Shown: in pieces, positions 4,122 to 5,768 of the stretch
Layout of the letters: every line of letters begins with the position of its first letter
Position numbering within the stretch: the first letter of the stretch is position 1
From: Escherichia coli
Lineage (GTDB): Bacteria; Pseudomonadota; Gammaproteobacteria; Enterobacterales; Enterobacteriaceae
DNA: 64,000 nt
Strand: one strand, 5' to 3'
Assembly (NCBI RefSeq): GCF_011045215.1
Contig: NZ_CP049201.1
The notes under the pieces: model-generated
Databases searched by the model: none
What the model was told of the DNA's origin: nothing
Seen by the model: only the letters and a program-made list of their open reading frames with translations
Translations under genes and position numbers: made by a program

Positions 4122-5768
4122 ATGAATGGCGCACAGTGGGTGGTACATGCGTTGCGGGCACAGGGTGTGAACACCGTTTTCGGTTATCCGGGTGGCGCAA
4201 TTATGCCGGTTTACGATGCATTGTATGACGGCGGCGTGGAGCACTTGCTGTGCCGACATGAACAGGGCGCGGCAATGGCGGCTATCGGTTATGCTCGTGC
4301 TACCGGCAAAACTGGCGTATGTATCACCACGTCTGGTCCGGGAGCAACCAACCTGATAACCGGGCTTGCGGACGCACTGTTAGATTCTATCCCTGTTGTT
4401 GCCATCACCGGTCAAGTGTCCGCACCGTTTATCGGCACTGACGCATTTCAGGAAGTGGATGTCCTGGGATTGTCGTTAGCCTGTACCAAGCACAGCTTTC
4501 TGGTGCAGTCGCTGGAAGAGTTGCCGCGCATTATGGCTGAAGCATTCGACGTTGCCAGCTCAGGTCGTCCTGGTCCGGTTCTGGTCGATATCCCAAAAGA
4601 TATCCAGTTAGCCAGCGGCGACCTGGAACCGTGGTTCACCACCGTTGAAAACGAAGTGACTTTCCCCCATGCCGAAGTCGAGCAAGCGCGCCAGATGCTG
4701 GCAAAAGCGCAAAAACCGATGCTGTACGTTGGTGGTGGCGTGGGTATGGCGCAGGCAGTTCCTGCTTTACGAGAATTTCTCTCTACCACAAAAATGCCTG
4801 CCACCTGCACGCTGAAAGGGCTGGGCGCAGTTGAAGCAGATTATCCGTACTATCTGGGAATGCTGGGAATGCATGGCACCAAAGCGGCGAACTTCGCGGT
4901 GCAGGAGTGCGACTTGCTGATCGCCGTGGGTGCACGTTTTGATGACCGGGTGACCGGCAAATTGAACACCTTCGCACCACACGCCAGTGTTATCCATATG
5001 GATATCGACCCGGCAGAAATGAACAAGCTGCGTCAGGCACATGTGGCATTACAAGGTGATTTAAATGCTCTGTTACCAGCATTACAGCAGCCGTTAAATA
5101 TCAATGACTGGCAGCAACACTGCGCGCAGCTGCGTGATGAACATTCCTGGCGTTACGACCATCCCGGTGACGCTATCTACGCGCCGTTGTTGTTAAAACA
5201 ACTGTCGGATCGTAAACCTGCGGATTGCGTTGTGACCACAGATGTGGGGCAGCACCAGATGTGGGCTGCGCAGCACATCGCCCACACTCGCCCGGAAAAT
5301 TTCATCACCTCCAGCGGCTTAGGCACCATGGGTTTTGGTTTACCGGCGGCGGTTGGCGCACAAGTCGCGCGACCGAACGATACCGTCGTCTGTATCTCCG
5401 GTGACGGCTCTTTCATGATGAATGTGCAAGAGCTGGGCACCGTAAAACGCAAGCAGTTACCGTTGAAAATCGTCTTACTCGATAACCAACGGTTAGGGAT
5501 GGTTCGACAATGGCAGCAACTGTTTTTCCAGGAGCGATACAGCGAAACCACCCTTACCGATAACCCCGATTTCCTCAAGTTAGCCAGCGCCTTCGGCATC
5601 CCTGGCCAACACATCACCCGTAAAGACCAGGTTGAAGCGGCACTCGACACCATGCTGAACAGTGATGGGTCATACCTGCTTCATGTCTCAATCGACGAAC
5701 TTGAGAACGTCTGGCCGCTGGTGCCGCCTGGTGCCAGTAATTCAGAAATGTTGGAGAAATTATCATGA
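4122..5768 (+). CDS. ilvG: Acetolactate synthase II large subunit, full length
   Basis: 548-aa ORF with TPP-enzyme motifs. Uninterrupted, unlike the K-12 frameshifted allele. Confidence 0.95.

Follow-up and report, generated by a model that had tools for sequence, protein, structure and literature searches.

A full-length ilvG in the ilvGMEDA operon of a non-K-12 Escherichia coli: the usual state of the gene, from which valine resistance is predicted

The window, that is the whole 64,000-nucleotide stretch of Escherichia coli DNA that was analysed (contig NZ_CP049201.1), contains an ilv operon with the gene order ilvL-ilvX-ilvG-ilvM-ilvE-ilvD-ilvA, in which ilvM lies immediately 3' of ilvG. 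Numbered from the first base of the window, the features of the operon are:

3813..4102, plus strand: 5' leader region of the ilv operon, covering ilvL, the attenuator and the start of ilvX (Rfam RF02744)
3884..3982, plus strand: ilvL, a 32-codon leader peptide rich in Ile, Val and Leu (MTALLRVISLVVISVVVIIIPPCGAALGRGKA) (NCBIfam NF007744)
about 4007..4038, plus strand: attenuator terminator, a G+C-rich hairpin followed by a run of eight U
4069..4119, plus strand: ilvX, a 16-codon small ORF directly upstream of ilvG, identical to the ilvX of K-12 and other RefSeq genomes
4122..5768, plus strand: ilvG, catalytic subunit of acetohydroxyacid synthase (AHAS) II, a single ORF with an ATG start and 548 codons plus TGA
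5098..5101, plus strand: site of the K-12 lesion, ATAT here and AT in K-12, codons 326-327, as read from alignments
5765..6028, plus strand: ilvM, small (regulatory) subunit of AHAS II, 87 aa (NF008362; ACT_5 domain)
6048-6977, plus strand: ilvE, intact (NCBIfam equivalog)
7042-8892, plus strand: ilvD, intact (NCBIfam equivalog)
8895-10439, plus strand: ilvA, intact (NCBIfam equivalog)

Translation of positions 4122-5768 gives 548 residues with one stop codon at the end and no internal stops. This, together with the ORF listing, bears out the coordinates and length given by an earlier reading of the letters alone (the sequence-only reading), which had claimed an uninterrupted 548-codon ilvG at this place. 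Neither re-translation nor a codon-by-codon check against two intact alleles revealed an internal frameshift, which rules out a hidden frameshift or internal stop. Against NF006524, the NCBIfam equivalog of the acetolactate synthase 2 catalytic subunit, the product scores 1071 bits (cut-off 738), and it does so over its full length (residues 1-547 on profile positions 1-547 of 548); it likewise passes TIGR00118, the generic model of biosynthetic AHAS large subunits. The three-domain architecture of the ThDP enzymes is present in IlvG as TPP_enzyme_N (PF02776, residues 1-115), TPP_enzyme_M (PF00205, 186-321) and TPP_enzyme_C (PF02775, 374-522), all far above the gathering score. The exact 548-aa protein is already in the NCBI collection as the acetolactate synthase 2 catalytic subunit of Escherichia coli (WP_164475907.1; QIF14579.1), and its sequence was found on one NCBI genome contig and in one read-set assembly with the same neighbours (SRR11014969). 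The gene is well known, and the intact ilvG of the window is its ordinary wild-type form, which had already been deposited and annotated.

The 90%-identity cluster which holds this IlvG in the protein collection is represented by a sequence of 1041 aa. Members of that length are named as CusA/CzcA efflux pumps from Bacteroides, which looks like a database clustering artefact.

By comparison, the ilvG of E. coli MG1655 (b4488 in NC_000913.3) is annotated as a pseudogene and measures 1645 nt against 1647 nt in the window; in a K-12 derivative annotated by PGAP a copy identical to that of MG1655 is called 'frameshifted'. K-12 ilvG is without one AT/TA dinucleotide of the run AAATATCAATGA (gene nt 977-980, equal to window 5098-5101). 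The window reads AAATATCAATGA where K-12 reads AAATCAATGA, so that the gene is not a pseudogene of the K-12 type. As a consequence of the 2-bp loss at codons 326-327 the K-12 frame reads ...PLNQ and stops at codon 328, whereas the window ilvG reads through this position and on to codon 548. In pairwise alignment the gene is therefore intact exactly where that of K-12 is broken, the very contrast that the sequence-only reading had drawn. The lesion has been described as 'two separate base pair insertions' (PMC3032704); all intact alleles examined are 2 bp longer than K-12 ilvG, and the alignment was followed over that wording. Besides the 2-bp indel the two genes differ by 40 substitutions (97.6% nt identity), in agreement with the further claim that this genome is not K-12.

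The frequency of the two states was counted as exact matches of 80-bp (K-12) or 82-bp (window) probes in 5426 complete E. coli genomes. The K-12 probe, with the deletion at its centre, was found exactly in 340 of these, and the three sampled at 100% were laboratory or collection strains (ER1709, ATCC 98082 and one named K-12). At lower identity it matched a further 4579 genomes, of which the sampled ones align over 82 bases, i.e. are undeleted. The window probe was exact in 1404 genomes, with most others 1-3 SNPs away; K-12-derived strains such as MFDpir align to it with an 80-base span. All 39 full-length matches to the locus that were sampled among the complete genomes carry an ilvG feature under the match, and the best identity over the locus in that collection is at most 99.1%. 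The intact gene is the norm in E. coli and the K-12 state is a laboratory exception. Since the intact state is the usual one, with the K-12 allele in 340 of 5426 complete genomes, an intact ilvG is a weak marker of non-K-12 status and carries no surprise.

A different lesion was met in E. coli NCCP12480 (NZ_CP068680.1), where a deletion leaves 954 nt of the 5' end of ilvG fused to a distal portion of ilvA and takes out ilvM, ilvE and ilvD, both ends being annotated as partial pseudogenes. This strain should be a branched-chain amino-acid auxotroph.

The 5' region of the operon matches RF02744, an enterobacterial 5'UTR family, over the whole model (1-300 of 300) with 157.1 bits against a gathering score of 88. 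The leader peptide IlvL, the same as the K-12 copy, matches the ilv operon leader peptide model NF007744 over residues 1-32 of 32 (81.9 bits; cut-off 59). The hairpin at 4007-4038, which we take to be the ilvGMEDA attenuator, is without sequence variation across all four strains aligned; the folded RNA of 3996-4042 has a stability of -23.3 kcal/mol (z = -4.4), equalled by none of 200 shuffles. An internal mismatch in the stem hid this plus-strand attenuator from a terminator pattern scan, while folding shows the hairpin. A pattern scan for promoters gave only minus-strand hits, no more than in shuffled sequence. From 3360 to the start of ilvG the window differs from E. coli BE2-5, an ilvG-intact strain, at two positions, both in a remnant of yifB and none from 3440 on; the promoter, ilvL, attenuator and ilvX are base-for-base the same. 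Eleven SNPs separate the window from K-12 within 3699-3832; those of the promoter-upstream region are common to BE2-5.

The partner gene ilvM matches NF008362 with 133.9 bits (cut-off 68), and its exact sequence occurs on at least 1000 contigs. Its ATG overlaps the TGA of ilvG as ATGA, an arrangement that implies probable translational coupling of the two genes. The distal genes ilvE, ilvD and ilvA are full-length, stop-free orthologues of those of E. coli BE2-5 and TUM9757, and the divergent ilvY and ilvC downstream of ilvA are full-length equivalog matches.

Several peculiarities of the surrounding genes were recorded. The ilvD gene has only 94.8-95.7% nt identity to those of BE2-5 and TUM9757 (pS 0.16-0.20), and its flanks are closer (ilvM 99.6% and gppA 100% to BE2-5), which suggests that it may have been acquired by recombination from a distant lineage of Escherichia; in spite of this divergence its pN/pS of 0.03 indicates strong purifying selection. 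At the ilvA/ilvY junction (10436-10439) the 58-bp spacer between these convergent genes is missing, a spacer which in BE2-5 and TUM9757 carries a REP-like palindrome (GCCTGATAGCGCTTCGCTTATCAGGC). Without the spacer the two stop codons overlap (TTAA), and IlvY is shorter by its last residue (296 versus 297 aa). At least three further complete E. coli genomes match the spacer-less junction without a break, while all others listed have the spacer. Lastly, the differences of rffC (27931-28605) from BE2-5 are clustered at residues 27-31 (S27T, P28S, D29E, A31P), and its pN/pS of 0.21 is the highest of the region.

On the other side of the operon yifB (comM), which is divergent from ilvL, is broken by an insertion some 170 nt past the start of its coding sequence. 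The inserted element occupies window positions 1-3359. The junction, at about 3359, is inside yifB, about 525 bp upstream of the ilv operon and beyond the ilv promoter; the other end of the island lies beyond the 64-kb window. The features recognized here are:

551-1351, minus strand: AntA/AntB antirepressor-domain protein of the island (domain match)
1956-3206, minus strand: tyrosine integrase of the island (Arm-DNA-bind_3 and Phage_integrase domains)
3352-3561, minus strand: yifB remnant ORF, next to ilvL; all that is left of YifB is an N-terminal piece of 59-69 aa with the ChlI domain

The same yifB junction is present in E. coli TUM9757, where Icd-like, DUF4222 and RepA-helicase genes come next, that is a P4-like satellite or island. 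A Shigella or otherwise decaying genome, an idea prompted by the locus identity of at most 99.1% and by the truncated yifB, was rejected: the exact IlvG protein is recorded as that of E. coli, and what disrupts yifB is not an IS element but an island with an integrase, which E. coli TUM9757 carries too.

The residues E47, F109, Q110, M250, R276, V375, D428, N455, M460 and W464, which the AHAS II mutagenesis literature assigns to catalysis, cofactor binding and substrate specificity, are all present in the window IlvG, and the GDG(X)24-27N ThDP-Mg motif (D428, N455) lies at residues 427-456. Two sets of homologues were compared, a close one of the 120 closest cluster representatives (Escherichia, Citrobacter, Salmonella, Enterobacter and Klebsiella) and a distant one of 140 diverse AHAS large subunits with 40-58% identity. 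The listed residues are conserved in the close set; in the distant set E47, R276 and V375 are invariant and the others are the commonest at their positions, W464 being the most variable (99 of 140). Four residues of the window protein, the products of A69T, A221S, M486K and P517S, were not seen among the 120 closest representatives, in which position 69 is A in every case and position 517 is P in 118. In the distant set T69 occurs in 9 of the 140, K486 in 62 (the commonest residue) and S517 in 7; position 221 varies widely. Since each of the four occurs in other, distant AHAS enzymes, all are tolerated states in the family. A69T was also considered as a herbicide-resistance site and rejected: against the Arabidopsis AHAS sequence, A69 aligns to approximately Ala166 and not to Ala122, whose equivalent in IlvG is A26.

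The pN/pS of ilvG is 0.14 against BE2-5 and 0.07 against TUM9757, as compared with 0-0.03 for most neighbours. Against BE2-5 there are 6 nonsynonymous and 13 synonymous differences, versus about 24 and 326 in the pooled neighbours (Fisher p = 0.002), and the ratio is also above that of the neighbours against TUM9757 (p = 0.03). Alignment shows that ilvG is polymorphic among other E. coli as well. Values so far below 1 point to purifying selection with no sign of decay, and the pattern fits a somewhat relaxed, redundant isozyme more than a decaying gene.

We might then ask whether the gene could be full length and the enzyme nevertheless impaired, with a private missense (A69T, which falls in the conserved ATSGPGATN loop, or P517S) crippling AHAS II so that the strain behaves like K-12. 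The invariance of A69 in the closest homologues and the near-invariance of P517, together with the N/S ratio raised relative to the neighbouring genes, speak for this. Against it stand the T69, S517 and K486 of diverse AHAS large subunits, the retention of every catalytic and cofactor residue checked, and a pN/pS of 0.07-0.14 with just four changes in 548 residues. Checked against both the close and the distant homologues, loss of function via private missense is unsupported and we consider it very unlikely. Little credence is given, too, to the broader proposal that the four substitutions and the raised N/S ratio reflect an AHAS II with, for instance, other kinetics, another stability or a changed response to inhibitors, or else a redundant isozyme at the very beginning of functional decay. 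An active enzyme might also be expressed abnormally, such that valine resistance fails or is partial; this idea draws upon the island junction within yifB, upstream of the ilv promoter, and upon the 11 SNPs relative to K-12. From the yifB start codon through the promoter, leader, attenuator and ilvX to ilvG, however, the DNA is base-identical to that of the island-free BE2-5, so the promoter-region SNPs are a natural allele. The integrase, moreover, is on the opposite strand and transcribed away from ilv, and TUM9757 has the same island junction beside an ilv operon annotated as intact. Altered expression is accordingly regarded as extremely improbable.

K-12 strains with a restored ilvG do exist, and the window might in principle come from such a derivative, either an ilvO/ilvG+ revertant or an engineered repair. 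The 40 substitutions beside the indel mean that this ilvG is not a repaired K-12 allele, and this sequence comparison refutes the revertant. The surrounding 25 kb, which are about 96-98% identical in the best-coverage matches listed, and the island in yifB, absent from K-12, argue in the same direction; the probability that remains for a K-12 derivative is virtually nil. For the wild-type reading, no evidence against function was found in the residues, which are kept, in ilvM, which is intact, or in the regulatory region, which is as in BE2-5, and ilvG is thus predicted to be functional. We hold with high confidence that window positions 4122-5768 are a wild-type, functional ilvG allele, the activity of the enzyme, its insensitivity to valine and the absence of polarity being the part that we infer from established knowledge.

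E. coli has three AHAS isozymes, of which I (ilvBN) and III (ilvIH) are inhibited by valine and II (ilvGM) is not. K-12, which is without AHAS II, suffers isoleucine starvation upon the addition of valine. In the strain studied here transcription would start at the ilv promoter and pass the ilvL leader and attenuator to reach ilvG, which would be translated, in coupling to ilvM via the ATGA overlap, to a 548-residue ThDP-, FAD- and Mg2+-dependent catalytic subunit. IlvG and IlvM would together form AHAS II, condensing pyruvate with pyruvate or with 2-ketobutyrate. As this enzyme should escape valine feedback, isoleucine synthesis would continue while valine shuts down AHAS I and III, and the strain would be valine-resistant. 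The open frame would also avoid the transcriptional polarity which the K-12 frameshift exerts on ilvEDA. An intact ilvG goes with valine resistance in B, W and Crooks strains (PMC3446290, PMC7066862, PMC3032704), and by analogy with these the valine resistance predicted for the present strain, by the sequence-only reading too, is a well-founded inference.

Past the correct annotation of the gene, and the statement that the strain is not K-12, the result matters little. The strain is predicted to grow on minimal medium with valine, and its ilvEDA genes should be free of the polarity seen with the K-12 frameshift. The population count is a reminder that the laboratory exception is K-12 and that the intact gene is the norm.

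Among known systems the closest are the ilvG genes of other non-K-12 E. coli (B, W, Crooks, O157:H7 and BE2-5, WP_001012619.1), which share the 548-aa length, operon position, leader, attenuator and family model. The window gene has 98.8% nt identity to that of BE2-5, with 6 aa differences, and its protein differs from the non-K-12 forms by A69T, A221S, M486K and P517S, of which A221S is also found in an E. coli member (P0005) of its 90% cluster. The list of solved relatives holds no E. coli IlvG structure; the nearest are AHAS catalytic subunits, namely E. coli IlvB (6lpi, E = 6.7e-161) and the Arabidopsis and yeast enzymes (about 1e-150 to 1e-145), and the entry 5ahk, named 'acetolactate synthase II, large subunit', is merely a distant match (E = 1e-84). 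IlvB and the plant and yeast AHAS (1ybh, 1n0h) align over residues 2-544 (E = 6.7e-161 and 4e-150) and have the same fold family and chemistry, with the catalytic Glu, the ThDP/Mg motif and the ATSGPGATN loop in common with the window IlvG, but as isozymes or paralogues they are distinct. The partner of IlvB in the valine-sensitive AHAS I is IlvN; that of IlvG, which is valine-insensitive, is the short ACT-domain protein IlvM. With the K-12 pseudogene b4488 the window gene shares an orthologous locus, in which ilvM is nearly the same and ilvL, the attenuator and ilvX show no difference.
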